Source: Oscillospiraceae bacterium (lineage in GTDB: Bacteria > Bacillota > Clostridia > Oscillospirales > UBA929). From it: 64,000 nucleotides of DNA. Below are positions 3,221-38,271 of this stretch, piece by piece (positions within the stretch are counted from its first letter, which is position 1; each line of letters opens with the position of its first letter). A program made the position numbers and the translations under genes. The notes beneath the pieces are model-generated. The model was not told the origin of the DNA and ran no database searches. It saw nothing but the letters and a program-made list of their open reading frames with translations. The stretch is from the NCBI GenBank assembly GCA_009777475.1, contig WRLU01000006.1, forward strand, positions 5,863-69,862, in the 5' to 3' direction.

Positions 3221-3837
3221 TAAGTCAACCTCCCTGTGGGGTATAAATTTGCAGTTTGCAGTAAATCAATCTGCATATATTCTGGTGCTTCTTTTGGAAT
3301 TGCAATTTCATTTAGCGGTATAACCGCACCAAAAAAAGAAAACACATCTCTAAATCGTTCTGCATTTTCACCATAATATACAGCACAGCAAGACATAGGT
3401 GCTCCCTTGTTATCACTGTTTCCCTCAATAATAAATTTTAACCGAGTATCATACAAAAAACATATTGAGCTTGCAAGCGGATATACATATTTTTTCCAAT
3501 GGGATGTATTTGTTGCCACTGGAACTAACGCGATAATTTCAGCGTTGTATTTTTTATACGTATCAGCTATTTTTTCAAACCAGTGACGGATTGCGGTATG
3601 CCGCTCCTTGTCAGCTCCATATGGCGGATTCACATAGATAGTCCTATAGTTCCATTCTTCACGCAATCCATCTGTTTCGGGAAGTAAAAATTCTGTCGTA
3701 GCATTTACAACGGAGTATATGCTTGAGCAAGGGTCTAAATCAATGCTCCCATGGAAAACCCTTTTAACTGCATCGACATATTTTTTTGGAGTACACCAAT
3801 CTTTTATTTCAGTTACAGCTTGCCGCCCAGCCGACAT
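3220..3837 (-). CDS. DNA N6-adenine methyltransferase, phage-Dam-like small MTase
   Basis: 205 aa. WCTPKKYVDAV..IDLDPCSS (motif I-like) and YVNPPYG (motif IV, NPPY). Very AT-rich. The stop overlaps the malQ ATG by 1 nt (TAATG). Confidence 0.75.
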   Translation of the reverse strand: MSAGRQAVTEIKDWCTPKKYVDAVKRVFHGSIDLDPCSSIYSVVNATTEFLLPETDGLREEWNYRTIYVNPPYGADKERHTAIRHWFEKIADTYKKYNAEIIALVPVATNTSHWKKYVYPLASSICFLYDTRLKFIIEGNSDNKGAPMSCCAVYYGENAERFRDVFSFFGAVIPLNEIAIPKEAPEYMQIDLLQTANLYPTGRLT

Positions 3838-3839
3838 AT

Positions 3840-4943
3840 TTAGCCCTCCAATTCACTCAATTTATTTAACATAACTTTCAGCTTATTAATATCCCCTTTA
3901 TTTGGGGAAATAACGTTAAACCATTTTTGAATTTTATCTAAATTTTCTGCAAAATATTTTGTCAAAAGCCTGTCGGCCTGGGTATCCATATTCGTTTTTG
4001 TAAATCTATTGCTTTTCCTTCCTTGTGTATAACTTTGTTGAAAAGCATCTCTTATTTGATAAAATTTTGGATTGTCATCTAAAAGAATATCTTGAATAAA
4101 AGTTGCCAAACCGTTGTCTGTCAAAAAGAGAAGCCAATCATAGGATTGTGCTAAAACCTTTATTTCTTTGTTCTGATTGTTTGACGTAAACCAGTTGCCA
4201 TGATTGCTTACAATCCCAACAGTTAGAATAAAATGTTTTAGAATTTCCTCGTTATATTCAAAAATTGCGTGTTCTATTAATGTATTATAATCATCATAGG
4301 TTTTAAGTTTTCCTCTATGTTCAACAGCACCTGCCATCCTTCCGTCACTCAATCGTATTCTTTGAATGGAAGAAACTGTGCGGGCAACATAAGAACCTTG
4401 CTTTGCCTTTTCTATTGTTTGAGGACCTTTCTTGCAACCATCCTCAACACCGACACGCTTACATTCAAACATTGCAAAAGGCTCATTGCTGAGTTCATAA
4501 AGAAAAATATTTTCCATATCTTTTGAGAAATACGCATTGCAAAACGCTAGATCTGAGAAAGCAACTGTGCAAGCATTTCTAATAGTTCCGTCTTTTAATA
4601 AATTACGGCTAGATGGCTTTTGGAAATTTCCAGAAAGCTTGGCATTGCTAAAAATTCTTGTTGACGTTATGGATTCTTTTTTCGGGGCTTCAAGAGTTCT
4701 AATTAACTTACTGCGATGAAAGGTAAATTCAACATTATGCTTAATTTCTTGGTTAGCATATTCGGGTAAGGGTTTTTCAATCGCTATTTTAAATTCATGC
4801 CCCCAAGCTTTAATCAAATAAAAGCTTATAATTTCAACAATTGTCCCTAACGCTCTTCCAGCAGCTTTTTTTGGAGATTCCACATGAGAAAAGACCTCCT
4901 TAGACATTGCGTTTTGCATTTTATCTATCGACTGATATTTCAT
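3840..4943 (-). CDS. Uncharacterised protein, putative restriction endonuclease partner of the adjacent MTase (PD-(D/E)xK-like D..ECK motif)
   Basis: The track ORF 3840..4976 starts at GTG. I prefer ATG 4943 (MKYQSID..), which is preceded by AGAGGAAGGG and overlaps the serS stop as TAATG. Candidate catalytic segment: KDMENIFLYELSNEPFAMFECKRVG. It ends 2 nt from the MTase start. I recognise no family. Confidence 0.45.
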   Translation of the reverse strand: MKYQSIDKMQNAMSKEVFSHVESPKKAAGRALGTIVEIISFYLIKAWGHEFKIAIEKPLPEYANQEIKHNVEFTFHRSKLIRTLEAPKKESITSTRIFSNAKLSGNFQKPSSRNLLKDGTIRNACTVAFSDLAFCNAYFSKDMENIFLYELSNEPFAMFECKRVGVEDGCKKGPQTIEKAKQGSYVARTVSSIQRIRLSDGRMAGAVEHRGKLKTYDDYNTLIEHAIFEYNEEILKHFILTVGIVSNHGNWFTSNNQNKEIKVLAQSYDWLLFLTDNGLATFIQDILLDDNPKFYQIRDAFQQSYTQGRKSNRFTKTNMDTQADRLLTKYFAENLDKIQKWFNVISPNKGDINKLKVMLNKLSELEG

Positions 4944-6226
4944 TAACACCCTTCCTCTCTTGTTAACCGTCCGCACTTCATATAACCATGCAAAGCTTCA
5001 GGCAGCGCAATGCTTCCATCGGCATTTTGGAAGTTTTCCAAAATGGCAGCAACAGTACGCCCTACGGCTAAACCGGAGCCGTTGAGAGTGTGAACAAATT
5101 TCGTCTTGCCGTCTTCGGCGCGGTAACGTATAGCACCCCTCCTGGCCTGAAAATCTTCAAAATTCGAGCAGGATGAAATTTCTACATACTTTTCATAAGA
5201 GGGCATCCAGACCTCCAGGTCATAGGTTTTCGCACTTGAAAACCCTAAATCCCCGGCACAAAGTGTCACTACACGGTAGGGAAGTCCTAGCATTTGCAAA
5301 ATCCTTTCGGCATCGCCCGTCAGGATATCTAATTCATTATATGAGTTTTCAGGCAGAGAAAATGTCATCAGCTCTACCTTGTTAAACTGGTGCTGACGAA
5401 TCAATCCCCTGGTATCGCGCCCGGCACTCCCCGCCTCGGCACGGAAGCATGGGGTGTATGCACAATAACGTATGGGAAAGTCGTCGGGGGAAAGTATCTC
5501 CTGGCGGTGCATATTGGTCAGGGGAACCTCGGCGGTGGGTACAAGAAAATAATCCGTACCGACAAGCTTAAATGCATCCTCTTCAAACTTGGGGAGTTGC
5601 CCGGTGGCAGTCATTGATTCGCGATTGACCATGTATGGCGGCAGGATCTCGGTGTAGCCGTTTTGAGTGTGGGTATCCAAAAAGAGGTTGTAAAGGCTCC
5701 TTTCTAACCGTGCTCCCTGACCTTTGTAAAAATGAAATCTAGCCCCGGTGACCTTTGCGGCTGCGGCCGGGTCGAGAATACCTAGATCTTTTCCTATCTC
5801 CCAGTGAGGTCTGGGCGTAAAATTAAATTCACGCGGCTCTTGGAATCTTCTAGTCTCAACATTCGATCCTGAATCCGCCCCCTCCGGAATATCTGGGCTG
5901 GGAATGTTAGGGAGCGAGAGCATAAGATGCTCAAGGTCATTCCCTATCTCTCTCAAAGAGCTTTCTAAACCGGGAATTTTTTGAGACAGATCTTTCATTT
6001 GCGCCATGATTTCGTCTGTGTTTTCTTTGGCTTTTTTCATCATGGGAATTCTTTTTCCGGCAGCATTCTGTTCCGCCTTGAGGCTCTCTATCTGGGCTAA
6101 AAATGATCGTTTCTGCCCATCTAACTCTAAAATCCGGTCAATACAATCCGCCAAAGCCTTGCCCCGGCGTGCCAGGCCTGCCTTGAATTGCCCTGGGCTT
6201 TCCCTGATTTGTTTAATATTCAGCAC
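4943..6226 (-). CDS. serS: Seryl-tRNA synthetase
   Basis: 427 aa. N-terminal coiled-coil arm MLNIKQIRESP.. and a class II core (TGQLPKFEEDAF, FRAEAGSAGRDTRGLIRQHQFNKVE, GSGLAVGRT). Confidence 0.95.
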   Translation of the reverse strand: MLNIKQIRESPGQFKAGLARRGKALADCIDRILELDGQKRSFLAQIESLKAEQNAAGKRIPMMKKAKENTDEIMAQMKDLSQKIPGLESSLREIGNDLEHLMLSLPNIPSPDIPEGADSGSNVETRRFQEPREFNFTPRPHWEIGKDLGILDPAAAAKVTGARFHFYKGQGARLERSLYNLFLDTHTQNGYTEILPPYMVNRESMTATGQLPKFEEDAFKLVGTDYFLVPTAEVPLTNMHRQEILSPDDFPIRYCAYTPCFRAEAGSAGRDTRGLIRQHQFNKVELMTFSLPENSYNELDILTGDAERILQMLGLPYRVVTLCAGDLGFSSAKTYDLEVWMPSYEKYVEISSCSNFEDFQARRGAIRYRAEDGKTKFVHTLNGSGLAVGRTVAAILENFQNADGSIALPEALHGYMKCGRLTREEGC

Positions 6227-6243: not shown

Positions 6244-7089
6244 TTATTCTGCCAGAAGACGCTCGACTAATGCTTCTAAATCATCGGCGTCATAAAATTC
6301 AAGCTCGACCTTGCCCTTTCTGCGCCCGGCCGAAATAGATACCTTGCGTCCCCATTTTTCCGAAAGCTGTTTTTCATGCCCGGCTAAATAATTGACCGGG
6401 GTCTTTGGCTCTTCGGTGTCCTTGTCCAGCTGTTCTGCCAGCTTTTTGGCGTACACCTCCGCCTGGCGTACGCTCATTGCCTGCTCCTCCATACGCCGTG
6501 CCGCACCTTCCCGGCGTTTTTCCGGCAGGCTAAGCAATGGACGGACATGACCCTCCGATAGCTTTCCCTCATGCAGCATTTGCAGCACACCTTGGGGCAG
6601 GGATAGCAATCTGACAGTATTGGCGACTGCCGAACGAGAACGACCAACCTGGGAGGAAACCTCTTCTTGTGTTAAACCGTATTCTTCCATTAGAGTTCGG
6701 TAGCCTTGAGCGATTTCAACTGGGTTCAACCCCTCGCGCTGAAGGTTTTCAATCAGGGCAAGCTCTGTAGCCTGACGGTCGTCCGCCTCATGGACAATAG
6801 CCGGAAGGAGTGTTACTCCCGCCATGCGTGCCGCACGCCATCTGCGTTCACCCGCTATGATTTGATAGGTTCCGCTGGGTTGACGGCGCACCAAAAGCGG
6901 ACTTATTACCCCATGAGTTTTTATGGAGTCGGCTAATTCAGATAACGGCTCCGGTTCAAAGCTCTTGCGCGGCTGGCTTTCATTTGGCTCAATTTCAGAG
7001 AGGCGTAACATAACCGCACCCTCTCCGGGCATTGCGGCACCTTCGCCCAATAACGCACCCAATCCTTTTCCAAGACCCTTGCTTGTCAT
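6244..7089 (-). CDS. parB: Chromosome partitioning protein ParB/Spo0J
   Basis: MTSKGLGKGLGALL start, GERRWRAA box, HTH region. The start is trimmed from track 7209 to ATG 7089, which forms an ATGA overlap with the upstream MATE stop. Confidence 0.9.
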   Translation of the reverse strand: MTSKGLGKGLGALLGEGAAMPGEGAVMLRLSEIEPNESQPRKSFEPEPLSELADSIKTHGVISPLLVRRQPSGTYQIIAGERRWRAARMAGVTLLPAIVHEADDRQATELALIENLQREGLNPVEIAQGYRTLMEEYGLTQEEVSSQVGRSRSAVANTVRLLSLPQGVLQMLHEGKLSEGHVRPLLSLPEKRREGAARRMEEQAMSVRQAEVYAKKLAEQLDKDTEEPKTPVNYLAGHEKQLSEKWGRKVSISAGRRKGKVELEFYDADDLEALVERLLAE

Positions 7090-8465
7090 ATGTTTTTCTC
7101 CTTCCAGTTTGAATTTGACTTTCCATCTTTCCTCATAATCCTGATAAGCGACAGACCTAGCATGACGGATATTCCTGTTGTCAGCATATCGGCCCCCGGT
7201 TGAGCCCACACAAGCCCTTCAAATCCGAATTGGTAACTAAGCAGATATAGCAAAGGTATATAAAACAGAAGCTGCCGCCCCATTGTGATTATCATGGCTT
7301 GAACAGGCTTCCCGAGAGCCTGGAATGAAACCATCAGTGTCATTTGGGGGCCTATAAACGGGAGACCCAGCACAAAAATCTTCATTATGGCAACACCTGC
7401 CTCAATCGTTGGCTCATCGTTTATAAACAGCCTGATAATGTCCTCGCCCAATAATCTCAAAGCAATAGTACCGGCAAGGCAAAGCCCAAAAGAATATATC
7501 AGGGTTACCTTGAAGCCTTTGCTAACCCTGGAGAGTTGGCCGGCTCCATAATTATATCCGGCAAAGGGCTGATAACCTTGGACAAGAGCCAAAACCATCA
7601 TAAAAAACATGCTGCTTATACGCATTTGTACACCGTTACCCGCAATCACATGCTCGCCGTAGCCCGCCAAAACCCGATTCCCTAGAACATTTGAAGCACT
7701 CATAATAATTATGCTTAATCCGGACGGAAGGCCAACTGACAACACCTGAAGCATCATTTTCATGTCGGGCTTCCAGTCGCCAAGGCGTATTGACAAAACT
7801 GTTTTTTTGGATAAAAAATAGTAAACCCCATATCCAAACGACACCATTTGCCCGGTTCCTGTCGCCCATGCCGCACCCTGGGTACCCATTCCAAAGCCTA
7901 ATATCAAAATTGGGCTTAGAATTACATTTGTCACAATGCCGATGAGTTGGAGAATCAGTGCCTTATCAGCCGCACCCTCGCTACGCATTTTTCCGCTCAT
8001 TGCAACCGATGCCGCCGCGAACGCCACAAAGAGGATAAGCACCGAAAAATAATCGCTGGTGTGAGAAAAAGTTGCGTCACTTGCCCCTATAAGCCATATC
8101 ATCGGTGTTTTAATACAAAAGAGAACAGCAGCAAGGATGACCCCAAGGCCAAAAACAGTGTAAAGCGATACAGCAGAGGTGTGCCGGGCGCGTTCGATTT
8201 TATTTGCTCCCAGGAGACGTGATATATAACTCGAACCGCCAACAGCGAATATATTCCCCAAGGCCTGCGACAGCATAAACAATGGAAACGCAAGGGAAAC
8301 TGCCGCTAACATATCGGGGTTGCCTGTCTGTCCTATGAAAAATATATCGGTCATACTGTGAATTGATTGGGCAAGCATTGCTACCATCATGGGCAGTGCA
8401 AGCTGTATAATCGCTCTGCCTGCCGGGGCTGATTTCATCAGATCAATACCACTGCCTCTCAACAA
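7086..8465 (-). CDS. MATE-family multidrug/oligosaccharidyl-lipid efflux transporter
   Basis: 459 aa polytopic membrane protein with a typical MATE N-terminus (GRAIIQLALPMMVAMLAQS). TTG start 8465 has GGAGGG 6 nt upstream; the alternative is ATG 8438. Confidence 0.85.
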   Translation of the reverse strand: MLRGSGIDLMKSAPAGRAIIQLALPMMVAMLAQSIHSMTDIFFIGQTGNPDMLAAVSLAFPLFMLSQALGNIFAVGGSSYISRLLGANKIERARHTSAVSLYTVFGLGVILAAVLFCIKTPMIWLIGASDATFSHTSDYFSVLILFVAFAAASVAMSGKMRSEGAADKALILQLIGIVTNVILSPILILGFGMGTQGAAWATGTGQMVSFGYGVYYFLSKKTVLSIRLGDWKPDMKMMLQVLSVGLPSGLSIIIMSASNVLGNRVLAGYGEHVIAGNGVQMRISSMFFMMVLALVQGYQPFAGYNYGAGQLSRVSKGFKVTLIYSFGLCLAGTIALRLLGEDIIRLFINDEPTIEAGVAIMKIFVLGLPFIGPQMTLMVSFQALGKPVQAMIITMGRQLLFYIPLLYLLSYQFGFEGLVWAQPGADMLTTGISVMLGLSLIRIMRKDGKSNSNWKEKNI

Positions 8466-19901: not shown

Positions 19902-22778
19902 ATGAAAATAACAGCGCACGCGAATACCCGCGGGCAAGCCCGCACGTCAATGAAAATCACCGCATTGACCCTGGCACTGGCGATGACTCTGGCAATGCTG
20001 CCAGGGCTTCCCGGCTTCCCGGCACCCTCCGCGTTAATGGCAGATGCCTCGTACTATTCCGGACCAACCGGAGGCCATTTCATTGACGAAATAGCCCCGC
20101 CCCAGGAAAGCTCCACGCCTATTTCCAACCGAGCCGAGCTGGAGGCTATCAGAAACAATCTCAGCGGCAGGTACCACCTGGTTGCCGATATTGACCTGTC
20201 AGGAGGATATTGGGACCCGATTGGAGATAGCTCTTCAAATGCTTTTACAGGCAATCTGGATGGACAGGGTTATGTTATCCGAAATATGACTATTGTCGGC
20301 AATCATGAATATGCAGGGTTATTTGGATATATTGCGGGCAGTAGTCCAACGATTAGAAACATTGGTTTAGAGAACACATATATTGAGGTGAGTACTCTTA
20401 ACGATGTATATGCCGGCGGAATTTGTGGCTATGCAAAGGTTTTAAGCTCGTCAATCCGAAATTGCTACAATACGGGTGAAGTTGTTGCTGCGGCATCTTC
20501 TAACATATATGTCGGCGGAATTTCCGGATATAGCTCAGGCTTTAGCATCCGAGAGTGTTATAATATGGCAAATATATCGGGCAATGCCTTCATTGGTAAT
20601 AATAGTTTTTTCTCTTATGTCGGCGGAATTTCCGGATATTTAGCTATAGGCTCAACCTCAAACTGCCACAATATGGGCAATATTTCAGGCACAGCCAACT
20701 CACCAGACAATTGGCTTAACTTTTACGTTGGGGGTATTTGCGGCTATAAGCCGGGCACTAGCAGCATCACTGATAGCTACAATACCGGAAGAGTATCCGT
20801 CAACCTTTTCGGTGATAGTTTTTATGAGCCGAATATCAGGATAGGAGGAATCCTCGCCGCAGCCTCTAATGTGGCTATCCGCAATTGTTTCAACCAAGGC
20901 ACGGTAGCTGTAGAAATAAACAACTCTCTCGATATTGAGCCTACTGTTCGTGCAGGCGGAATTTGCGGTGTTCTTGGCGGCTCTAACTCGGGCATTGTAA
21001 AAACCTTTAACACAGGATTTGTGGCTGTTTCAAGTAATTCTAAGTATGGATATTTGTATGCTGCAGGTATTTGTGCCAGCTTTGATGAAGCAATAGAAGA
21101 CTGCTACAATAAAGGGGAAGTGCGTGCCTTTGGAGGAGAGTGGGCTTATGCCGGTGTTGGCGGAATTACCTCAGATACATATGATAGTGCTTCTATAGTT
21201 AACTGTTACAACACAGGTCATCTAGGTGCCGGCAGCGGTACAAATGGCGAGTCACACGTTGGCGGGATTTGTTTATGGCCTCCCTTTGTTGCAAATGCCT
21301 ACTGGAACAGCGACAGCGAGCAGGTGTTAGACTATGCCCCGCAAAACCCCAAAAGAGGTATTTTTGAATCTGAAGACTCGATTGATACAACAACATCTCT
21401 TAACACGCCTCAGATGAAGCTTCAGAGCAACTTTGTGGGCTTTGACTTCGATGATGTATGGGGCATTGACCCGCTTATAAATAACGGTTTTCCCTTTCTG
21501 CGCAATTCACCTAATTGGTATAGTGGTGGTGGGTACAGCACCCCTGGACCTGTTACGCCTACCCCTCCGATAGGTACCCCTCCGGTAACTACTACATACA
21601 CCGTCAATTTCTACTCAGACGGCGGTACACAGGTTGATCCGTACACCGGAGTTGAAAGCGGCTCCACGATTGACATGCCCCTGCCTCTGCCGGAAAAGCC
21701 AGACTTTGCCTTTGTTGGCTGGTTCAAGGATCCTCAGTTAACCGAGCGTTGGGTTTTTGAGCATGACACGGTGACATCGAACATCACCCTGTACGCTTCC
21801 TGGGGAGACATCAGGCACACCGGGATTGACTACAACTATGAGGATTTAATTGTGCCGGGGTCCATAAACGGCACTGAGGTTAGGGATCAATTCCACATCA
21901 ATTTGCGCAGGGAAACCTTCCTGAAGCCAGATAGTTATACTATTAAATCCTACAGCATTGACGGCGGCAACAAGTGGAAGGGAATCAAAAAGGGTAATGA
22001 GTTTGACAACGGCGATAAAAAAGGCTTTGTTAAATTTTTAGGAAAAAACACTACCCTGCATTTGTCGGATAAAGAGATAGACAAGGCGACAAAAAAACCC
22101 GAAGAAGGCGACACCCGCGTGACCTTCCCAACCATTGAGAAGCGTGCCAAGGCCCCCAGGTGTACAATCAACTATCTCCTGGCGGCTGATATGACCGGCA
22201 AAACCACAGGTGAATGGATGCTCTCCGCCAAAAAAGTGGAGGATGTGCCGTTGAAGGCCGGAATTGAGATCGCCGCCTCGGGTTCTAATCCCAAAGAAGT
22301 GGGCGAAATGGGCTACGGTAGGTTTTATTTCCCGGATGACCCCGATATGCGTATTGGCATACCCGTTGAGGTTTCACCCAACGGCAAGGCGGAAACCTTT
22401 GTTTATTTTGTCCGCACCGCCCCTCGTCCCAATGAAGACGGCGTTTCCTACACAGCCGGAAGCAAGCCGAGGAAAACGCTGGCGACAAGCATGGGAAACA
22501 GTGTTAAAAGCATCGGCAAGGCTCCAAGCTACAGCATTAAAAATGATACCATCAAGCTTAAAAAGGGCGACATGATTTTCGCCGGAAGCGAGTCGGAGCT
22601 GGGAGTCGGGCCTGAGATTGTCTCCGGCAGTGCCGGCCTGACCCAGGGTAAGCTCCTGTACGCCAAGGACAACAAGACTGAAATTTCCCTGGCGGATTAC
22701 CCTTCCGGATCAATTATGCTCTGGAAGGCACCCAAGTTAAAAAAAGCGGTCAGTCGCAAGCTGCTGCTGACACCCTGA
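19902..22778 (+). CDS. Large secreted protein: signal peptide, GLUG-motif beta-helix repeats, Listeria-Bacteroides (Flg_new) repeat, unassigned basic C-terminal module
   Basis: 958 aa. Hydrophobic leader ITALTLALAMTLAML. At least 8 repeats of the type YAGGICGY / YVGGISGY. YTVNFYSDGGTQV..FAFVGWFKD..ITLYASW. The C-terminal ~318 aa are homologous to the tail of the 35959..38271 protein. Confidence 0.75.
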   Translation: MKITAHANTRGQARTSMKITALTLALAMTLAMLPGLPGFPAPSALMADASYYSGPTGGHFIDEIAPPQESSTPISNRAELEAIRNNLSGRYHLVADIDLSGGYWDPIGDSSSNAFTGNLDGQGYVIRNMTIVGNHEYAGLFGYIAGSSPTIRNIGLENTYIEVSTLNDVYAGGICGYAKVLSSSIRNCYNTGEVVAAASSNIYVGGISGYSSGFSIRECYNMANISGNAFIGNNSFFSYVGGISGYLAIGSTSNCHNMGNISGTANSPDNWLNFYVGGICGYKPGTSSITDSYNTGRVSVNLFGDSFYEPNIRIGGILAAASNVAIRNCFNQGTVAVEINNSLDIEPTVRAGGICGVLGGSNSGIVKTFNTGFVAVSSNSKYGYLYAAGICASFDEAIEDCYNKGEVRAFGGEWAYAGVGGITSDTYDSASIVNCYNTGHLGAGSGTNGESHVGGICLWPPFVANAYWNSDSEQVLDYAPQNPKRGIFESEDSIDTTTSLNTPQMKLQSNFVGFDFDDVWGIDPLINNGFPFLRNSPNWYSGGGYSTPGPVTPTPPIGTPPVTTTYTVNFYSDGGTQVDPYTGVESGSTIDMPLPLPEKPDFAFVGWFKDPQLTERWVFEHDTVTSNITLYASWGDIRHTGIDYNYEDLIVPGSINGTEVRDQFHINLRRETFLKPDSYTIKSYSIDGGNKWKGIKKGNEFDNGDKKGFVKFLGKNTTLHLSDKEIDKATKKPEEGDTRVTFPTIEKRAKAPRCTINYLLAADMTGKTTGEWMLSAKKVEDVPLKAGIEIAASGSNPKEVGEMGYGRFYFPDDPDMRIGIPVEVSPNGKAETFVYFVRTAPRPNEDGVSYTAGSKPRKTLATSMGNSVKSIGKAPSYSIKNDTIKLKKGDMIFAGSESELGVGPEIVSGSAGLTQGKLLYAKDNKTEISLADYPSGSIMLWKAPKLKKAVSRKLLLTP

Positions 22779-25320: not shown

Positions 25321-26433
25321 CTATGCTTTAAAACCGGTTTCATATGCGGGATTATACGCCGGAATGTCGGAAAGCTCAACTAAATGACGCGGGTATCCTC
25401 CGGCGTAGTCAACACAGGGTGATGAAAATTCTGAAACGCCGGCGGTATCTGCGGGAGAAAACGGCAGGGTGACGGTAAAAACAGCCCCTTTACCTTTTTT
25501 TGAGGAAGCAAAAATACTTCCGCCGTGTTGCTCGGCGTATGCCGCCGCGAGGGGCAATCCTAATCCGGGGGAGATGTTGCGGGGGGAAAACATGCGGTAT
25601 TTTTCAAATAGGCAAGCTCGTGATTCATCATCTAAGCCGCAACCATCGTCTTTTACCTGCAAAATTAAATTCGTCCCCTTCCTTGACAGGCTTATATCTA
25701 TTTTCCCGCCTTCCCTTACAGAGTGGAGGGAGTTGGAAATCAAATTGAACAAAAGCCTCTCTATTTTATCAGCCTCAACATTTGCTAATGGCAGATTGTC
25801 GATGCCGCTGTATGATACACTAATCCCCAATGTGGCGGCAATCCCGGAGGTTTCATCTGCACACCTGCGGCACAAAAGGTCAATGTCGGTTGGCTCCGGG
25901 TCGGCGTAATCAACATTTTCAAAGCAACGAGAGGTGTCATTCAAATTACACGAAAGCCGTAGCAGTGATAAGGCTCCCCGGCGTACCTCGGCAATATATT
26001 TTTTGTTAGGTTCATCGGTGACGTTCCCCGACTTAAGGCTGTCTACTGCCGCCAAGAGGCTTGCTAAGCGATTTCTTATATACACGCTCATGCTCTGCAT
26101 AAAGGGGGGCATAGCATCATCGGCGGAATGTATGGGGATAAATACTAAAAGCATCTGATTGTCCGACACTTTTACATTTACATGGTACTCGGTGCTTTGT
26201 ACCCTAGCCTTGACCCTTCCAGTTTGATGACCGCTGGAAACTAAGTCTTGGATAGCTTCCAGTGCCCCTGAAGAGATAAATTCGCCTAACGGAATCCCCT
26301 GTGAAAAATCTACTTCACCAAGGTCAAAAAAGCACTTGCCTGAGGTATTTGCCATATACGCCAGACCATTTTTTCCAGCTAAGGCCGGATAAGGCATATC
26401 ATGCAGCTGCCTTTGAATTTCTGCGTTAAACAA
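25321..26433 (-). CDS. Soluble histidine-kinase-like protein (HATPase_c) lacking the phospho-acceptor histidine
   Basis: N box LLFNLISNSLHS, G1 DDGCGL, G2 GLGLPL. The DHp-equivalent segment reads FMQSMSVYIRNRLASL where SHELRTPL is expected. No TM segments. Confidence 0.7.
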   Translation of the reverse strand: MFNAEIQRQLHDMPYPALAGKNGLAYMANTSGKCFFDLGEVDFSQGIPLGEFISSGALEAIQDLVSSGHQTGRVKARVQSTEYHVNVKVSDNQMLLVFIPIHSADDAMPPFMQSMSVYIRNRLASLLAAVDSLKSGNVTDEPNKKYIAEVRRGALSLLRLSCNLNDTSRCFENVDYADPEPTDIDLLCRRCADETSGIAATLGISVSYSGIDNLPLANVEADKIERLLFNLISNSLHSVREGGKIDISLSRKGTNLILQVKDDGCGLDDESRACLFEKYRMFSPRNISPGLGLPLAAAYAEQHGGSIFASSKKGKGAVFTVTLPFSPADTAGVSEFSSPCVDYAGGYPRHLVELSDIPAYNPAYETGFKA

Positions 26434-27158: not shown

Positions 27159-28271
27159 ATGACAGTATGCGCTATAATCTGCGAATATAACCCTATGCAT
27201 ATGGGGCATTTGTACCACTTAGAGCAGACACGCGCCGCCTTGGGGACAGATGCTCGCTTTATCGCGGTTATGTCAGGCCATGTTGTGCAGAGAGGCGAAT
27301 TTCCGATACTAACAAAATACGCTCGTGCCAGATTAGCACTTTTGGCAGGGCATGATCTTGTGTTCGAGCTGCCTGCCCCCCACGCCTGCGCCCCGGCAGA
27401 GCGCTTTGCCCGGGGTGCTGTTTCTGTTATATCTAAGCTAGGCTGCGTCACACACCTTTCATTTGGAGCGGAATGCCGCAGCTTAGAGGAGTTACGCTGC
27501 GCTTCCGAAAAAATCACCGCCACTTACCCCAAGGATATATCATTAGCCAGGGCAATGCCCCTGCTTTTTCCCGAACATGCAAAAATTTTTACCCCCAATA
27601 ATATTCTCGGAGCAGAATATCTTCGCGCTTTGCGGGATATAGCACCTCATATAAAGCCCATAATGATTCCTCGTGCCTGTGGCTCAGAGCATGACAGGGA
27701 CGGCTCGGCTATGTATTGGAGAAAAAAACTTTTTGCCAGAGAGGATTGTTCGGGGCTGCCTTTTTACCATGTGTTATCGCAGGCACTTGAAGAAGGGCTT
27801 GCTCCTATAAGCCTGAAAAACGCCGAAAAAGCGGTATTGTCCCATCTGCGCGGATTGTCCCAGGAGGGGTGGGGAGCTATGCCTGATGTCAAGGGCGGTT
27901 TGGCACAGAGAATTTCGTTAGCGGCAAAGGAATCCGTCACACTAGGCGAGCTGTATGCCAACGCTAAAACAAAGCGGTATACTATGGCGCGGATACGCCG
28001 TGTAGTATTATCGGGTTTTTTGGGAATAACCGAACGACAGGCACTTGCGCCGCCTCATATACGCCTGCTGGGAATAGGGAAATACGCCTCTGAGCTGCTT
28101 TCGGCAATACAATGTCCTATAATAAGTCGTCCGGCGGCTCACAAGAGGGCTCTTGGCTTAGAATCTGCCATAACAGATCAGCTAACCCTGTTTATGCCCA
28201 CACCCCAGCCCTCCGGTCTGGAGTGGCGTAGCGGGGTGGTCCGGGGAAAGGACGAAACACCTGCTTTGTAA
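27159..28271 (+). CDS. tmcAL: tRNA(Met) cytidine acetate ligase (YlbM/TmcAL family nucleotidyltransferase)
   Basis: MTVCAIICEYNPMHMGHLYHL is the family N-terminal signature. The start is trimmed to ATG 27159 (GTGAGG 8 nt upstream). Confidence 0.8.
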   Translation: MTVCAIICEYNPMHMGHLYHLEQTRAALGTDARFIAVMSGHVVQRGEFPILTKYARARLALLAGHDLVFELPAPHACAPAERFARGAVSVISKLGCVTHLSFGAECRSLEELRCASEKITATYPKDISLARAMPLLFPEHAKIFTPNNILGAEYLRALRDIAPHIKPIMIPRACGSEHDRDGSAMYWRKKLFAREDCSGLPFYHVLSQALEEGLAPISLKNAEKAVLSHLRGLSQEGWGAMPDVKGGLAQRISLAAKESVTLGELYANAKTKRYTMARIRRVVLSGFLGITERQALAPPHIRLLGIGKYASELLSAIQCPIISRPAAHKRALGLESAITDQLTLFMPTPQPSGLEWRSGVVRGKDETPAL

Positions 28272-28355
28272 GCCCAATTTTCAACGAGATCAGAATCAGT
28301 ATGATAATCGCACCCTTCAAATAATATTTGCAAATTTTGTTCTTTCACAGCGAAA

Positions 28356-28919
28356 TCAATCACCGTTTTCAAATACCATATTTCCGGTATCAGTTACAGT
28401 CTTATCACTTTTCCATGACATCGAAAATTCCCGGCCGGCAAAAAGCGAAGCTAGTCCGCTTATTTGCTTGAGTCGTAAAAGCTCATCGGCATCCATTCCA
28501 ATATTCTTCATAATCCAGCTGTCGCTCAGGCCTGCCTCTGTAAGTTTTGCAATAATATCCACCATCATATCAATATTGTGGGTCCCTCTGGCTCGATTAT
28601 GCCTTATTGTACTCGCTATGCGCTCCGACAAAGGCTTGTCAATGACCGATACAGGAAGATGGTTGCTTTCCCGCTCTGCAATCTCCGGGCAGGTTTTCAT
28701 AACCAGATACCGGTGAAATCCATCCACAATTTCATACATGTCGTCATCTGCGATGTAATAGCAGACAACAGGCATAGTATACCCATCCTCCAATATGGAC
28801 TTTACGAGCAATTTCATTTCCGGGGATGAGACCCTGTTAGGGTTATAGCTGTTTGCCTGTACCTTCTCAATCGGTATCCTCATGACATCATATACAGGAC
28901 TCAGATAATTTTCTTCCAT
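28356..28919 (-). CDS. ParB/sulfiredoxin-fold nuclease-domain protein, IbrB-like
   Basis: 187 aa with IPIEKVQANSYNPNRV, EIVDGFHRYLV (DGxHR-type motif) and STIRHNRARGTH. The start overlaps the upstream gene by 19 nt. Confidence 0.75.
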   Translation of the reverse strand: MEENYLSPVYDVMRIPIEKVQANSYNPNRVSSPEMKLLVKSILEDGYTMPVVCYYIADDDMYEIVDGFHRYLVMKTCPEIAERESNHLPVSVIDKPLSERIASTIRHNRARGTHNIDMMVDIIAKLTEAGLSDSWIMKNIGMDADELLRLKQISGLASLFAGREFSMSWKSDKTVTDTGNMVFENGD

Positions 28920-30214
28920 GATTCCATTGCCTCCTTCTGCTTTTGCAGCTCATCCTTAGTTTGGCTGAAGCCCATATATTTACAGGATGTATCATTCTTT
29001 AAAATAGTGATGCATATCCGTTTATAGCTTGGAATCAACCTAAAATCCTTTGAATATATACGGTCGGGATATTCGTGAAAGCGTACCATCTCATGATCGA
29101 CACTGTATTTCCGATTCCCTAGAGGTTTGCCAAGACGCTCCATTTTAACCCCCATGCTTTCCAGCTCCTCAATAGCTCTGACAGGCAAGGCTCCGCCTTT
29201 TTCCAGCCAGTAATAATGCGAGGTCTCAAACTTCTTCCTGTAAATACTGGCAGTGTGTTCCGGCAATGTACCCAGCAGAAATTCCGCATAGCTTTTCCAT
29301 GTATGCCCTATGGGCAAGGAGATGTCCTTGTTGCCCATAGCCTTCGTCCCGCCGTAAATTGCACCGAAATTCGCTCCGTTTACCCGACCGACCAGCTTGC
29401 CCCAGGTATTCGGTTCAATAGCCCTGTACAGCTTCAGCGCGTCAACGCCGCAGATATGATAAGGGTTGGCAACCCTCATTTTAGCAAGCGGCACACCGGC
29501 CAGATAAAACAGATCATACAATTTGTTGTAGTCAAAGCCATATTGATAATTGGCCGTCCAAATATCCTCTGTCGTCCAGTCATAGAGAGGATAAAAATTA
29601 TAAATATTATCAAATATCCTTGTGCTAAAGGCAGTTCCTTCAAAACAGGTCAAATCATCGTCCCGGGTTACCGCATGGTACCTATTCAGGCTTTCCTGTG
29701 CACGTATTCCAACCAAAATGGCGGTTCTTTTTGCGTTGTTTTTCCCATGTAGCCATTTTCCGAGCTTTGTTTGGAATATGTAATCCGACATCCCGATTTC
29801 AAAAAAATTAAAGATGTGGTTGTCAAATGAGATAGCGTTTTCCGGCATCTCCTTTACCCATATGTCTTTTTCCTCGGGATTCCATGGCACCCAAGCAGAC
29901 TGGTGCATAGAAATGCCACAGGATGCGGAAACCGGCATGCATAAATGGTAATAATCAAAATAAGGATATTTTCCGATACACCTTGATACATAGTCGATGG
30001 TATGCTGATAGTTGCCTTCATAATCAAGGTGATATACCGACACACTGGATGAAGGCTTTTTTTCCATATAATACAGATTTACCAGCTCAAGCAGCACTCC
30101 CGAATCTTTGCCGCCGCTAAATGCCACTACAATATGGTCGAATTTAGAAAAAATGAACTCCATCCGCTCCATAAAAGCGTCCAATACATTTTTTTCACAA
30201 AAAGTCTTTCCCAT
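28901..30214 (-). CDS. PP-loop ATP-pyrophosphatase of the PAPS-reductase fold with long C-terminal extension (DUF3440-like), IbrA-like
   Basis: HIVVAFSGGKDSGVLLELV (SGGKDS PP-loop); about 437 aa. Preferred start is ATG 30214 with AGGAGG 5 nt upstream; the track start 30265 would overlap the regulator gene. Confidence 0.75.
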   Translation of the reverse strand: MGKTFCEKNVLDAFMERMEFIFSKFDHIVVAFSGGKDSGVLLELVNLYYMEKKPSSSVSVYHLDYEGNYQHTIDYVSRCIGKYPYFDYYHLCMPVSASCGISMHQSAWVPWNPEEKDIWVKEMPENAISFDNHIFNFFEIGMSDYIFQTKLGKWLHGKNNAKRTAILVGIRAQESLNRYHAVTRDDDLTCFEGTAFSTRIFDNIYNFYPLYDWTTEDIWTANYQYGFDYNKLYDLFYLAGVPLAKMRVANPYHICGVDALKLYRAIEPNTWGKLVGRVNGANFGAIYGGTKAMGNKDISLPIGHTWKSYAEFLLGTLPEHTASIYRKKFETSHYYWLEKGGALPVRAIEELESMGVKMERLGKPLGNRKYSVDHEMVRFHEYPDRIYSKDFRLIPSYKRICITILKNDTSCKYMGFSQTKDELQKQKEAMESWKKII

Positions 30215-30248
30215 ATCATCCTCCTTGAAAAATTGTGCGATTGTTTTT

Positions 30249-30941
30249 TCACGGTTCAAACGCATATCCTACACCACGCTCAACCCTGATGTGTTCCTTA
30301 GCCGGATAGATTTCTGAGAGCTTGGTACGGATACGGTTCATCGTCCGCCATAATATATCGGTGTCTTTTTCGTTATAATCCTCGCCCCATATCTTCTCCA
30401 TTAGTTCTTTGTGTTCCACAACGCATCCGCTGTCGTCCATTAAATAACACAAGATATCAAATTCTTTTTTTGCTAAGTTAACCTCAGTATTTTTTACAAA
30501 TACTTTTCGGCGAAGCTTTGAAAGGATTATGTCTCCGCCGGTTAGAATTCCTACGTGTTTTTGTGAACGCTTTGTGCGCCGGCTTTGTGCCTTCAATGTT
30601 TCCAGGGCTAAAAGGACATTTTGCTTGGCATATGAAACAAAAGGCTCATAAACATCCGCCCCGAGATTCATGGCCTTAATCTTTTTATCAATCGTATATG
30701 TCGAAGTCACAATGAAGATTGGCATATCTGTTGCATCGCGCATGATCGGCAATTGTTTCATAAAATCGCATATGGTGTCCTCGTTTATGACGACAAAAAG
30801 AAACTCTTCGCCTGCCACAAGCCTGCCAATCGCGTCATTTATCGTGTTGACACGCCGCGTGCCAATACCGTATTTTGCCCATTCTGCGGTGTGTTCCTCA
30901 TGTATGGCGATGTCTGTATCTACCGCCAGTATTCGCTCCAT
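30249..30941 (-). CDS. Orphan OmpR/PhoB-type winged-helix regulator with atypical receiver domain
   Basis: 230 aa. Receiver-like N-terminus ILAVDTD..FVVINED..IFIVTST..GADVYEPF (E where the conserved Lys is expected). C-terminal wHTH KKEFDILCYLM..RVERGVGYAFEP. No kinase is adjacent. Confidence 0.75.
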   Translation of the reverse strand: MERILAVDTDIAIHEEHTAEWAKYGIGTRRVNTINDAIGRLVAGEEFLFVVINEDTICDFMKQLPIMRDATDMPIFIVTSTYTIDKKIKAMNLGADVYEPFVSYAKQNVLLALETLKAQSRRTKRSQKHVGILTGGDIILSKLRRKVFVKNTEVNLAKKEFDILCYLMDDSGCVVEHKELMEKIWGEDYNEKDTDILWRTMNRIRTKLSEIYPAKEHIRVERGVGYAFEP

Positions 30942-31169
30942 ATGTACCCTCCGCTTTTTTCGGAGATTGGGGTGAAAATAGATAAAAACACTTTAAGAGC
31001 ATCCCATAAACATCTCTTATCATTTCTATTTAATCACCGCATAGCTCCCCTTTACCTTTCTATGTAAGGATAGCATAAATCTGTGTTACAATTATTCCTG
31101 CAAACATCCTTTATAACTCCTATTAAGCACTTATAGGCAATATACCACAAATTGGCATCCGCGCGGCTA

Positions 31170-31230
31170 CTGGCATACCCCTTCCGCTTCGGTCAATCAA
31201 CCCGGAGCGGAAGGTGGCTTTTGTTCTGTT
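31170..31230 (+). terminator. Strong plus-strand-oriented hairpin with T-rich tail and no plus-strand gene upstream
   Basis: CCTTCCGCTTCGG, 9 to 10-nt loop, CCGGAGCGGAAGG (13-bp stem, 1 mismatch), followed by TGGCTTTTGTTCTGTT. Confidence 0.45.
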
Positions 31231-35854: not shown

Positions 35855-35958
35855 AAGAATAGGACGACTGTCTGAGTTGGTGCCAAAGGATGCTTAGGTT
35901 AAGCGGCAAAACCCTCACTATAGGCTGACGTATGAGGGAAAACAAGGAGGAAAATGCA

Positions 35959-38271
35959 ATGATTAGGCAAGCAAAAAGAAACACAAGGAGCAAACTGGCG
36001 ATCATCACTGCGTTGGTGATGATATTATCCCTGTTCCCGGCCCCTTTCGGGTCGTGGGCAGACCTTATTCCTTCCGCGATGGGAATAACCTACCCGGGTA
36101 CAGCTGTGACCGGGAGGCCCGCCAGCGAATTTGAGTATCTCAACGCAGAAATAGACCAAGCTTCGGTAGTTGCCAACGCCGTTCAAAGCAACGGCGGTGC
36201 ACATGGCAATGGTTACGCTGCGCTGGATGGATATGACAGCACCACCTGGAACACTGGTGATACTGTTGGTATGTGGTCAGCAAGCGGAGGAACCTCATCC
36301 GTCACCATGACAGATGGTAAGAGTCATGGTGCCATGCCCGGCGTTCGGTTTAATACCCACAAGGTTCTCTTTTTCGCCTTTAATTCGCCTCAGAAGGTTG
36401 ATGAAATCTGGCTTTCGTTGCCCTATACCCTTGAAACCTTCCCTGATGGTCACGTTATTCAGGTGCAGGGAAGCAATGTTCTTCCAGGCACTCCTCCTCC
36501 GGGCGTTGTTTCATCCATAGGTGTTAACCCGAGCGTTGACCAGCAGCTGTCCAACAATTTGGCCGCCGCAACAAATGATACTCCCTCCACGAGTCCGCCC
36601 GGAGCCTTATCGGCTGCTTATTTGCCTGATGACTGGGATATAATTGGCGAGAGATACGCCGGAACCGGAACTGGATGGCAGCCTCTGGTTGACGTTACCC
36701 AGGGCAAAAGCTACCGCTACATACGAGTTGTTGTGACAGGCAGATGGGGAATGACCCTTGATGTTGCTGCATTTATATCTGAAATTGCTTTTTATACCGA
36801 TGAAAAGGTGCCGCCTGTGGCTAATCATGTCACCTATAATGCCAATACAAGCGTACCTGTAATCAATATGCCGGAAAACGGAACAAAACACGATGGAGCT
36901 GCATACACAATCCTCGGCACAACCGGCTCATTACCCATAAGAACAGACGGCTATATCTTCACAGGCTGGGCGGTATCGCCTGACGGTGCTGTGGCGTATC
37001 CGGCAGAGCAGGTCCATATTTACAACACAAACGCAGATCTTGACTTGTATGCGATTTGGGAGGAGGCCGATATTCTCTGGACTGTCAGCTACCGTGAGGG
37101 GAGTGTTGAAGGTATTGAGATAGGAATAGCCCCTTCAAGCGGTGCATATGGTGCCGCCGCCGGCACGGTAATAGACCAGAGTCTTCATAATGTTGTAGAT
37201 AATGTACCGATAGGCTATGATCTTATGAATCTGCCAAATTCAATAACTATTGTAAGCGGACCTGCTTTGGTTCTGAATGTGGCAGTCGGCCAAGGTACCC
37301 CGCTCCATTCGGAGGAGCCGGGGAATACAGCTGAACCGACACCAACAGAGCGTCCCGAAATTGTAGCCTTTCCCTCATACAAGCCGTGCGAAAATGATAC
37401 CGGGGAGTGCTGTATTGACTACAGCGAACCCAAGCAGGGGGTTGAGGTTATTGTCCCCGGGTCCGTAGGTGGCGCGGAAATCAACCTGACGCTGGAAACC
37501 ATTAGCTTAGGCGGATTTGCACCGTCTCAGTATAACATCGGTAATGGGAAATGGAAATCTGTTGGAAACGTCTTAAGCGACAAGAAGAAGTTCGCAAAGC
37601 TGCTCAACAAGGGCATGACCTTAAGCCTGAGGGATGCGGCAGGCCAAGAGATAACCTTCCCGCAAATCAACCCCCGCCCGAGGAATCCGAGGCTGAGCAT
37701 AAACTACTCTATCACCGAAGACAAGACCGGTGCGTCTCCCGGTGCGTGGGTGCTTGCTGAAAAGAGCAGCTTAACTGCGGCCAAGGAAAAAATACAGATA
37801 GCCGTTTCCACAGCGGCAAGCAAGGGCAAGGAGCCTAACGAGCATGGCTGGGGTAAATTTTATCCGGGAGATACAAGTAACGGCATCTGCGTGAAGCCGT
37901 TGCCGGATAACAATAAGGTTGGAAAAACAGCGTATATTTACCGAATCGCCCCCAGCGGAAATACCACGGAGGGATACAGCCCGGCAAGTAAGCAAAGAAA
38001 GGTTAATGCCACAAGCGAGCTGAGGAAGCCCAACATACGCGTAAAAATCAAGGAGAAAAAAGGCAGTGTTATTTCAGCCACCCTCCGGGTCAAAAAGGGT
38101 ATGTATGTGCGCTCATATTTCAATAGGATAGGCGAGGAAACCCTTTTGCCCCGCGCGGAAAAGTACGATATTAGCATGGTGCAGATCAGCGGGCCGGTTG
38201 AGGTGTGGATGGGAGCAAGGCCGAAAAAATCTGCCAGCGCGAAAAATTGGCTCTGGGAATCAGCGGGGTAA
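35959..38271 (+). CDS. Large secreted protein: signal peptide, discoidin (F5/8 type C)-like domain, Flg_new repeat, unassigned basic C-terminal module
   Basis: Start at ATG 35959 (AAGGAGG 8 nt upstream). Leader KLAIITALVMILSLFPAPF. YAALDGYDSTTWNTG..SYRYIRVVVTGRW..ISEIAFY. YIFTGWAVSPDG..LDLYAIW. The C-terminal ~285 aa are homologous to the tail of the 19902..22778 protein. Confidence 0.75.
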   Translation: MIRQAKRNTRSKLAIITALVMILSLFPAPFGSWADLIPSAMGITYPGTAVTGRPASEFEYLNAEIDQASVVANAVQSNGGAHGNGYAALDGYDSTTWNTGDTVGMWSASGGTSSVTMTDGKSHGAMPGVRFNTHKVLFFAFNSPQKVDEIWLSLPYTLETFPDGHVIQVQGSNVLPGTPPPGVVSSIGVNPSVDQQLSNNLAAATNDTPSTSPPGALSAAYLPDDWDIIGERYAGTGTGWQPLVDVTQGKSYRYIRVVVTGRWGMTLDVAAFISEIAFYTDEKVPPVANHVTYNANTSVPVINMPENGTKHDGAAYTILGTTGSLPIRTDGYIFTGWAVSPDGAVAYPAEQVHIYNTNADLDLYAIWEEADILWTVSYREGSVEGIEIGIAPSSGAYGAAAGTVIDQSLHNVVDNVPIGYDLMNLPNSITIVSGPALVLNVAVGQGTPLHSEEPGNTAEPTPTERPEIVAFPSYKPCENDTGECCIDYSEPKQGVEVIVPGSVGGAEINLTLETISLGGFAPSQYNIGNGKWKSVGNVLSDKKKFAKLLNKGMTLSLRDAAGQEITFPQINPRPRNPRLSINYSITEDKTGASPGAWVLAEKSSLTAAKEKIQIAVSTAASKGKEPNEHGWGKFYPGDTSNGICVKPLPDNNKVGKTAYIYRIAPSGNTTEGYSPASKQRKVNATSELRKPNIRVKIKEKKGSVISATLRVKKGMYVRSYFNRIGEETLLPRAEKYDISMVQISGPVEVWMGARPKKSASAKNWLWESAG

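Follow-up and report, generated by a model that had tools for sequence, protein, structure and literature searches.

A chromosomal IbrA/IbrB (YbdN/YbdM)-type gene pair behind a predicted pseudo-receiver OmpR-type regulator in an Oscillospiraceae bacterium

Among the described relatives of the locus considered here are the paired IbrA and IbrB proteins of Escherichia coli ECOR-9, both of which, in work attributed to Sandt and colleagues (2002, J Bacteriol 184:3640), are reportedly needed for expression of the prophage eib genes. The ECOR-9 pair, encoded on an island in a Gram-negative, pathogen-associated context, is the only member of the family with a reported phenotype, and eib activation by IbrAB is cited in PMC6008420 and PMC8065619. 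In E. coli K-12 the homologous genes ybdN and ybdM follow the regulator gene citR (ybdO) in the same direction (L122, NC_000913.3 634747-637618); the citR-ybdN-ybdM order is conserved beside citrate lyase genes in Enterobacteriaceae, and chromatin immunoprecipitation followed by exonuclease digestion (ChIP-exo) and RNA sequencing (RNA-seq) have shown that CitR represses ybdNM (PMC9068703). In Listeria monocytogenes the DUF3440/ParB pair lmo1309/lmo1310 has been listed as a toxin-antitoxin system, on guilt by association only (PMC7020466). Here a window of 64,000 nucleotides (nt) from an Oscillospiraceae bacterium (contig WRLU01000006.1, positions 5,863 to 69,862) was analysed for a three-gene locus encoding an OmpR-type regulator, an IbrA-like PP-loop protein and an IbrB-like protein of ParB fold (Table 1).

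The locus is a chromosomal IbrA/IbrB (YbdN/YbdM) module behind a lineage-specific OmpR-type regulator that cannot, by prediction, be phosphorylated. It is tentatively read, with slightly less than even confidence, as an operon serving DNA-bound, ATP-dependent control of gene expression. An earlier note, made from the letters of the stretch, had named the same three proteins as an atypical OmpR-type regulator, an IbrA-like enzyme and an IbrB-like ParB-fold protein; all three identities were upheld by the searches described below. Within its already known family the locus is a genuine case, if a rather ordinary one.

The IbrA-like and IbrB-like proteins

On its domain content the middle protein is a member of the IbrA/YbdN family, with Pfam matches to PAPS_reduct (PF01507, 1.2e-14, residues 45-252) and DUF3440 (PF11922, 1.2e-73, residues 257-441, 181 of the 182 profile positions). 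It matches phrog_2302 at 2.1e-101 and aligns over its full length with E. coli YbdN (b0602) at 31% identity (419 columns, E=1e-62). At least 7988 homologues were found in a clustered database at E<=1e-10, carrying the names 'DUF3440 domain-containing protein' or 'predicted PAPS sulfurtransferase', and clustering at 50% gave 268 clusters at E<=1e-30. The PP-loop motif SGGKDS, already read in the sequence by the earlier note, was confirmed and is invariant across the aligned family, as are 117 other positions; five cysteines (C92, C99, C255, C401 and C411) are conserved. An AlphaFold2 (AF2) model of the protein was of moderate quality (predicted local distance difference test, pLDDT, 70). Fold searching placed its N domain in the adenine-nucleotide alpha-hydrolase type, with matches to PAPS reductase, NcsA, TtuA and TilS; the same search with the DUF3440 domain gave no PDB match, and PDB searches with the single sequence and with a profile returned no solved relative.

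The PAPS_reduct match by itself would allow IbrA to be an assimilatory sulfate-reduction enzyme of the CysH/CysD kind, and the listing of the Listeria pair in TASmania would allow a toxin-antitoxin system (PMC7020466); both ideas are effectively refuted. Against the CysH models IbrA scored 19.4 bits (TIGR00434, cut-off 165, residues 220-255 only) and 20 bits (PRK02090, cut-off 154), and against the CysD models 16.6-25.6 bits with cut-offs of 195-414. These models, like the DndC model considered below, covered 40-60 residues of IbrA at about one tenth of their cut-offs. The end-to-end alignment with CysH or CysD that the earlier note had named among the possible objections to its reading was not found, nor was any synteny with cys or other sulfate-assimilation genes; the 185-residue DUF3440 domain has no counterpart in CysH or CysD, and neither protein of the pair matches a toxin or antitoxin family.

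The last protein matches ParB_N (PF02195) just above threshold (4e-6; 27.2 bits, cut-off 26.3) and phrog_2159 at 1.2e-72, with no Pfam match to ParB_C or HTH_ParB. It is about 70% identical across Firmicutes and 47% identical to E. coli YbdM (E=3e-52). The strings NSYNPNRV, VDGFHRY and HNRARG, quoted in the earlier note, are all present; the corresponding motifs NxYNPN, DGFHR and RHNRARG, together with LRLKQIxGL, are invariant in 39 IbrB sequences, and YbdM shares NxYNPN, DGFHR, TIRHNRARG and LRLKQIxGL. In the AF2 model of IbrB (pLDDT 78) a stretch of about 160 out of 187 residues can be superposed on the structures of KorB, Noc and ParB, a span made up of a nucleotide-binding-type N domain and a helix-turn-helix (HTH) domain; the best PDB matches were 8qa9 (KorB), 7nfu/7ol9 (Noc) and 6t1f/6sdk (ParB). 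The DGFHRY of IbrB aligns with the GERRW of Noc and of the genome's own ParB, so that DGFHR stands in place of the GERRxR of the clamps, as it does in sulfiredoxin and in DndB-type proteins. When the profiles of IbrB and of this ParB were compared, the N-domain alone was aligned, at low probability. The modelled fold identifies IbrB as a short ParB-family protein with an N domain and HTH; it shares these with the ParB/Spo0J, Noc and KorB clamps, whereas their C-terminal dimerisation domain is absent, and it is not classed with them.

The ParB used for these comparisons is a canonical chromosomal ParB/Spo0J with ParB_N, HTH_ParB and ParB_C, encoded about 21 kb from IbrB at 6244-7209 (minus strand); the window may lie close to the replication origin.

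The order of the two genes and their overlap were also found in L003-L009, L016-L018, L037-L039 and L122, with an overlap of 28 nt in K-12 against 19 nt in the window. This retained overlap fits a protein complex, and ibrA and ibrB are translationally coupled.

The regulator and the cassette in relatives

In Pfam the regulator matches Trans_reg_C only (residues 152-228, 1.4e-18, 67 bits, cut-off 26), with no Response_reg match at E<=0.01; NCBIfam response-regulator models align to it over its full length, far under their cut-offs. On alignment with canonical response regulators, N53 stands in place of the phospho-acceptor Asp, E99, accompanied by a 2-residue deletion, in place of the conserved Lys, and T9 in place of the acidic pair's second residue, while T79 is retained. 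The family to which it belongs comprised 49 proteins, all metagenomic and all with Trans_reg_C only; N53 is present in at least 90% of 19 aligned members, and position 99 is E or D in all 19. The regulator is on these residues a pseudo-receiver joined to an intact OmpR-type winged helix and, by prediction, non-phosphorylatable; with the phospho-acceptor Asp and the Lys lost, it would have to act without canonical phosphorylation. It shares the winged helix with OmpR/PhoB two-component response regulators and differs from them in lacking a phosphorylatable receiver. In this it resembles the atypical OmpR/PhoB regulators NblR, HP1043/HsrA, ChxR and GlnR, which have a receiver-like fold without phospho-acceptor chemistry and an intact winged helix, although none of the atypical equivalogs was matched (NblR aligned full length at 56.7 bits, cut-off 300).

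No cognate kinase adjoins the regulator. A 370-aa kinase-like protein is encoded at 25321-26433 (minus strand), between hisZ and trmK; it matches HATPase_c only, without HisKA, and has no response regulator adjoining. As a partner for the regulator this kinase was considered and dismissed on two grounds, its position outside the cassette and the missing phospho-acceptor Asp of the regulator.

An IbrA scan of the genome collection returned 4 loci, single-protein patterns being too specific, and the census of relatives was made through exact-protein look-ups. The order regulator-IbrA-IbrB was found in the window and two near-identical contigs, in L006, L037/L038 and L120/L121, and in L007, whose contig ends within the regulator. 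It is kept, with gaps of 17-51 nt, in four upstream contexts: a CmpB-like gene and lgt; GntR and an ABC transporter; MntP, DUF2975 and an HTH gene; and an aldo-keto reductase and DUF4143. In a rough neighbour-joining tree the regulators linked to IbrAB form one clade. Upstream of the regulator gene a non-coding leader aligns over about 200 nt among the window, L006 and L120 despite the differing genes beyond it, and probably marks the left border of the cassette; an Rfam search of this leader returned no family at E<=1. About 70 nt before the regulator start codon it contains a GATG-N7-GATG direct repeat, which may be a candidate operator.

It is unlikely that the adjacency is incidental, a lineage-expanded orphan pseudo-receiver controlling other genes having had IbrAB land beside it. 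Such an origin would suit the members of the regulator family, 48-68% identical, that occur without IbrAB (L010-L013, L015), beside a ferredoxin gene, genes for large unknown proteins, a hybrid kinase or a sortase-pilin cluster, and also the IbrAB homologues of 70-76% identity that occur without the regulator (L008, L009, L016-L018, L039), many IbrAB pairs having no adjoining regulator of any kind (L016-L018, L039). It would not account for the gene order kept with short gaps in four flanking contexts, for the leader of about 200 nt that travels with the cassette, or for a second, more divergent member of the regulator family that also lies directly upstream of IbrAB in L037/L038. Since the order recurs in varied contexts, yet both partners also occur apart, the coupling is real but narrow, a clade-specific acquisition and not a general property of the family.

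The earlier note knew of no described function for such a coupling. A dedicated regulator beside the pair is, however, not without precedent: citR-ybdN-ybdM of K-12 has an equal layout, and CitR represses ybdNM. The regulator in K-12 is a LysR-type repressor, that of the window an OmpR-type pseudo-receiver, and K-12 has no gene corresponding to the fourth one described next.

In L006, L007, L038 and L120 ibrB is followed, with a 4-nt overlap, by an XRE/HTH_3 gene of 123-133 aa, and in L008 and L009, which lack the regulator, a homologous HTH_3 gene of 114-115 aa lies about 40 nt downstream of ibrB. The DNA homology of the window to these relatives ends 10-20 nt past the start of the XRE gene. 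At this point a 64-codon open reading frame (ORF) matches the relatives' gene in its opening three residues only (LKT), after which it continues into the tmcAL 3' end in antisense orientation. IbrB ends in ENGD* in the window and in ENGEESS..NFF in the relatives, the last ~11 codons, an acidic tail, being gone. From these alignments the fourth gene, for an XRE-type HTH protein, has been deleted in the window in the same event as the loss of the IbrB tail, and the window accordingly holds a truncated four-gene cassette, roughly 28320-31125.

Two composite proteins were recorded among the relatives. In P0170 (323 aa) a PF03235 (DUF262-type) domain occurs together with an IbrB-like part (68% identity), and in P0169 (315 aa) a DUF3440 segment with the C-terminal part of the regulator (82% identity); they may be true fusions or assembly or frameshift artefacts.

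Proposed function and alternatives

Under the reading of the locus as an expression-control module, IbrB would bind DNA through its HTH and, as do ParB, KorB, Noc and sulfiredoxin, a nucleotide in the pocket containing DGFHR and RHNRARG. IbrA would form a complex with IbrB and, by the adenylation chemistry of PP-loop enzymes, spend ATP on a substrate located at the IbrB-bound DNA or close to it, and the output would be changed expression of target genes, as in the activation of eib in ECOR-9. The pseudo-receiver regulator would be, by analogy with CitR, the operon's own phosphorylation-independent transcription factor, binding the conserved leader; the window copy, which has lost the XRE gene, would lack one level of control. 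This reading matches the sole phenotype reported for the family, activation of prophage eib genes. Annotation and domain architecture place the ECOR-9 proteins and those of the window in one two-protein family; the window shows no evident eib-like target.

The pair is widespread on mobile elements. It is carried by 226 phage records, for example those of Streptococcus phages, and by 728 plasmid records, among them those of Klebsiella, E. coli and Enterococcus, and an IbrA relative is encoded on at least 584 IMG/VR contigs. In the phage module (phrog_2302/phrog_2159; Streptococcus phages CHPC877, PY7 and 36L) the homologues are about 50% identical, carry the annotation 'co-activator of prophage gene expression IbrA/IbrB', and have ibrB next to ibrA and overlapping it. 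Where the window has the regulator and no helicase, an SNF2-family helicase (~405 aa) lies just upstream of ibrA in 45 of the 48 viral loci checked; its nearest PADLOC models are ZorD, DrmD, DpdE and BrxH. The helicase is itself preceded by a protein of 105-131 aa without a Pfam family (L040-L119 set; e.g. L041:4770-6011). We know of no description of this three- or four-gene phage SNF2-IbrA-IbrB module.

Several points weigh against the expression-control reading. Binding of DNA and of nucleotide by IbrB is predicted from a modelled fold and from motif analogy, any substrate named for IbrA would be a guess, and in the literature on DUF3440 no biochemical activity is reported for IbrA or IbrB. 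Searches for parS-like palindromes, and for terminal or direct repeats bounding the islet, returned chance-level short matches only, and the window shows no conserved palindrome. The occurrence of regulator and pair apart from one another, described above, belongs here also. Lastly, the linkage to an SNF2 helicase in phages fits DNA transactions or modification at least as well as control of transcription.

This last point bears on the main alternative, which we hold to be possible though doubtful and in which the pair is a nucleic-acid modification module for defence, or for counter-defence in phages, and the regulator controls its expression only. IbrB would then, in the manner of DndB or DpdB, target DNA or load onto it, and IbrA would adenylate the backbone or a base like DndC, SspD or QueC-type enzymes. 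DndB/DndC, SspD and DpdB indeed have as their common theme the pairing of a PP-loop enzyme of PAPS-reductase fold with a partner of ParB fold; the five conserved cysteines of IbrA could hold an Fe-S cluster or a persulfide; and the helicase next to ibrA in nearly all viral loci, with the abundance of the pair on phages and plasmids, points the same way. In PADLOC-DB v2 the regulator and IbrB matched no family, IbrA gave weak, local matches to DndC (26-28 bits) and to BrxP, and no system model was matched as a whole. The DndC equivalog TIGR03183 was rejected as an identity for IbrA at 23.4 bits against a cut-off of 290.4, over residues 179-238 only; DndC has no DUF3440, and IbrA has no full-length homology to DndC. 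No desulfurase (DndA), DndD/E, SspA/B/C, DpdA transglycosylase or nuclease effector lies near the locus, its flanks are housekeeping genes and not a defence island, and the one genetic phenotype on record for the family concerns transcription and not DNA chemistry. The link to defence raised in the earlier note thus found no backing beyond weak partial PADLOC matches in housekeeping surroundings.

A bolder form of the expression-control reading is decidedly improbable in our estimate. In it IbrB would be a nucleotide-gated DNA clamp that recruits IbrA for a hitherto undescribed ATP-dependent chemical step on DNA or on a chromatin protein, switching on silenced or foreign genes, and in this clade the pseudo-receiver would be the sequence-specificity or signal-sensing subunit of a three-part epigenetic switch and more than an operon regulator.

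Small DNA-binding proteins of several kinds are encoded near IbrAB: XRE in Lachnospiraceae (L008/L009), the LysR-type CitR in K-12, and PerC on an E. coli F-type plasmid, where it adjoins IbrAB next to a fimbrial operon. Two plasmid settings were noted. In L003 (Enterococcus faecium plasmid pDMEA1) the pair lies near DUF916/DUF3324 cell-surface genes, and in L005 (E. coli plasmid p12A2) near an F4/K88-type fimbrial operon and the PerC regulator; these copies near surface-structure genes echo the phenotype reported for ECOR-9, eib encoding a surface protein.

Genomic setting and significance

Table 1. Coordinates of the locus and its parts, in positions of the window.
Feature	Coordinates	Strand	Length	Remark
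OmpR-type regulator gene	30941..30249	minus	230 aa	
ibrA-like gene	30214..28901	minus	437 aa	from MGKTF start
ibrB-like gene	28919..28356	minus	187 aa	
Intergenic spacer	30215..30248	minus	34 nt	between regulator and ibrA
Conserved non-coding leader/promoter region	30942..31125	minus		upstream of regulator gene
Scar of lost fourth cassette gene	28178..28372	minus	64-codon ORF	

The start of IbrA was set as in all homologues, the longest ORF beginning at 30265. The three ORFs are intact and co-directional; the tight packing described earlier stands, including the 19-nt overlap of the 3' end of ibrA with the 5' end of ibrB, except that the gap behind the regulator is one nucleotide shorter than the 35 nt given. 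In the sequence of this spacer an AAGGAGG ribosome-binding site was read 5 nt before the ibrA ATG, and a terminator scan of it found none; both are consistent with co-transcription of the regulator and ibrA. The preceding CmpB-like gene is closed by a hairpin at 31180-31214. The locus is flanked on one side by hisZ, the kinase-like gene, trmK and tmcAL and on the other by the CmpB-like membrane gene, lgt, folD and fhs. Inspection of the neighbours bore out that no integrase, transposase, desulfurase, SMC-like ATPase or nuclease adjoins the three genes, and a tRNA search of the window found none, and thus no tRNA integration site.

The islet has a G+C content of 43.4% against 48.6% for the whole window, about 2 standard deviations low (one being 2.6% for equal-sized windows), with 4.9% of equal-sized windows as low or lower. 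The counts on single lines given earlier were right for two lines (35% and 50%), the third being 40% and not 42%. G+C at third codon positions (GC3) is 0.47-0.49 in the three genes and 0.47-0.54 in the neighbours; the AT-richness therefore reflects amino-acid composition and not foreign codon usage, and composition was ruled out as a sign of recent transfer. The many phage and plasmid copies show the pair to be mobile over evolutionary time, and in relatives the cassette lies in varied contexts; the horizontal acquisition put forward in the earlier note is not borne out as a recent event. A scan of metagenomes for TmcAL, covering the tmcAL-lgt interval, returned 18 loci, the closest 55-63% identical, on short contigs and with unrelated downstream genes; among these 18, given the shortness of the contigs, no close relative without the cassette was found.

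The mobility of the family also makes it conceivable that the window copy was left behind by a phage or plasmid module and is now decaying, without a present role in the host. We consider this very unlikely. Phages are indeed rich in the pair, as counted above, and the fourth gene and the IbrB tail are deleted here; however, all three ORFs are intact, every invariant residue of the family is retained, GC3 is fully host-like, identical proteins are encoded on two independent metagenome contigs, and no other phage genes lie nearby.

A far more foreign-looking islet was noted at 3220-4976 (minus strand), between malQ (1730-3220) and serS (4943-6226), with a G+C content of 35-38% and a GC3 of 0.29 against about 0.50 in its neighbours. 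It encodes an N6-adenine methyltransferase, Dam-like and of phage type (205 aa, PF05869 at 8e-14; 'orphan methyltransferase' in PADLOC) and a 378-aa protein without a Pfam family that has faint matches to type II restriction/methyltransferase models, and it may represent a small insertion of the restriction-modification or orphan-methylase kind. On the plus strand, two large proteins that are apparently secreted are encoded at 19902-22778 (958 aa, with GLUG and Listeria-Bacteroides repeat domains) and 35932-38271 (779 aa, without a Pfam family); they are recorded because IbrAB-type pairs of E. coli and Enterococcus sit near surface-protein genes.

The earlier note had called the locus the best candidate for an uncharacterised system, which is fair in one sense only, namely that the whole IbrAB family is biochemically uncharacterised. 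To our knowledge the combination of an OmpR-like regulator with IbrAB has no prior description; it is specific to this lineage and has its close precedent in E. coli K-12.

IbrA/IbrB (YbdN/YbdM) is among the larger two-gene modules without a known biochemical function, present in K-12, in Listeria and on hundreds of plasmids and phages. The identity of IbrB between a gut clostridial genome and E. coli is an unusual degree of conservation, as would suit a substrate that is itself conserved, for instance DNA or a nucleotide. Three comparative facts are added here: one clade of clostridia from gut metagenomes carries a four-gene cassette, with a predicted non-phosphorylatable OmpR-type regulator ahead of the pair and an XRE-type protein behind it; the small DNA-binding proteins joined to the pair differ between lineages (LysR, PerC, XRE or OmpR-like); and phages attach an SNF2 helicase instead. 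Together the cassette, the varied DNA-binding partners and the phage helicase argue for a function that is DNA-bound and tightly controlled at the level of transcription. The value of the locus is comparative, its source organism being uncultured and ybdNM of K-12 a far better experimental handle; the citR-ybdN-ybdM layout and its repression by CitR make K-12 the obvious experimental model for the family.

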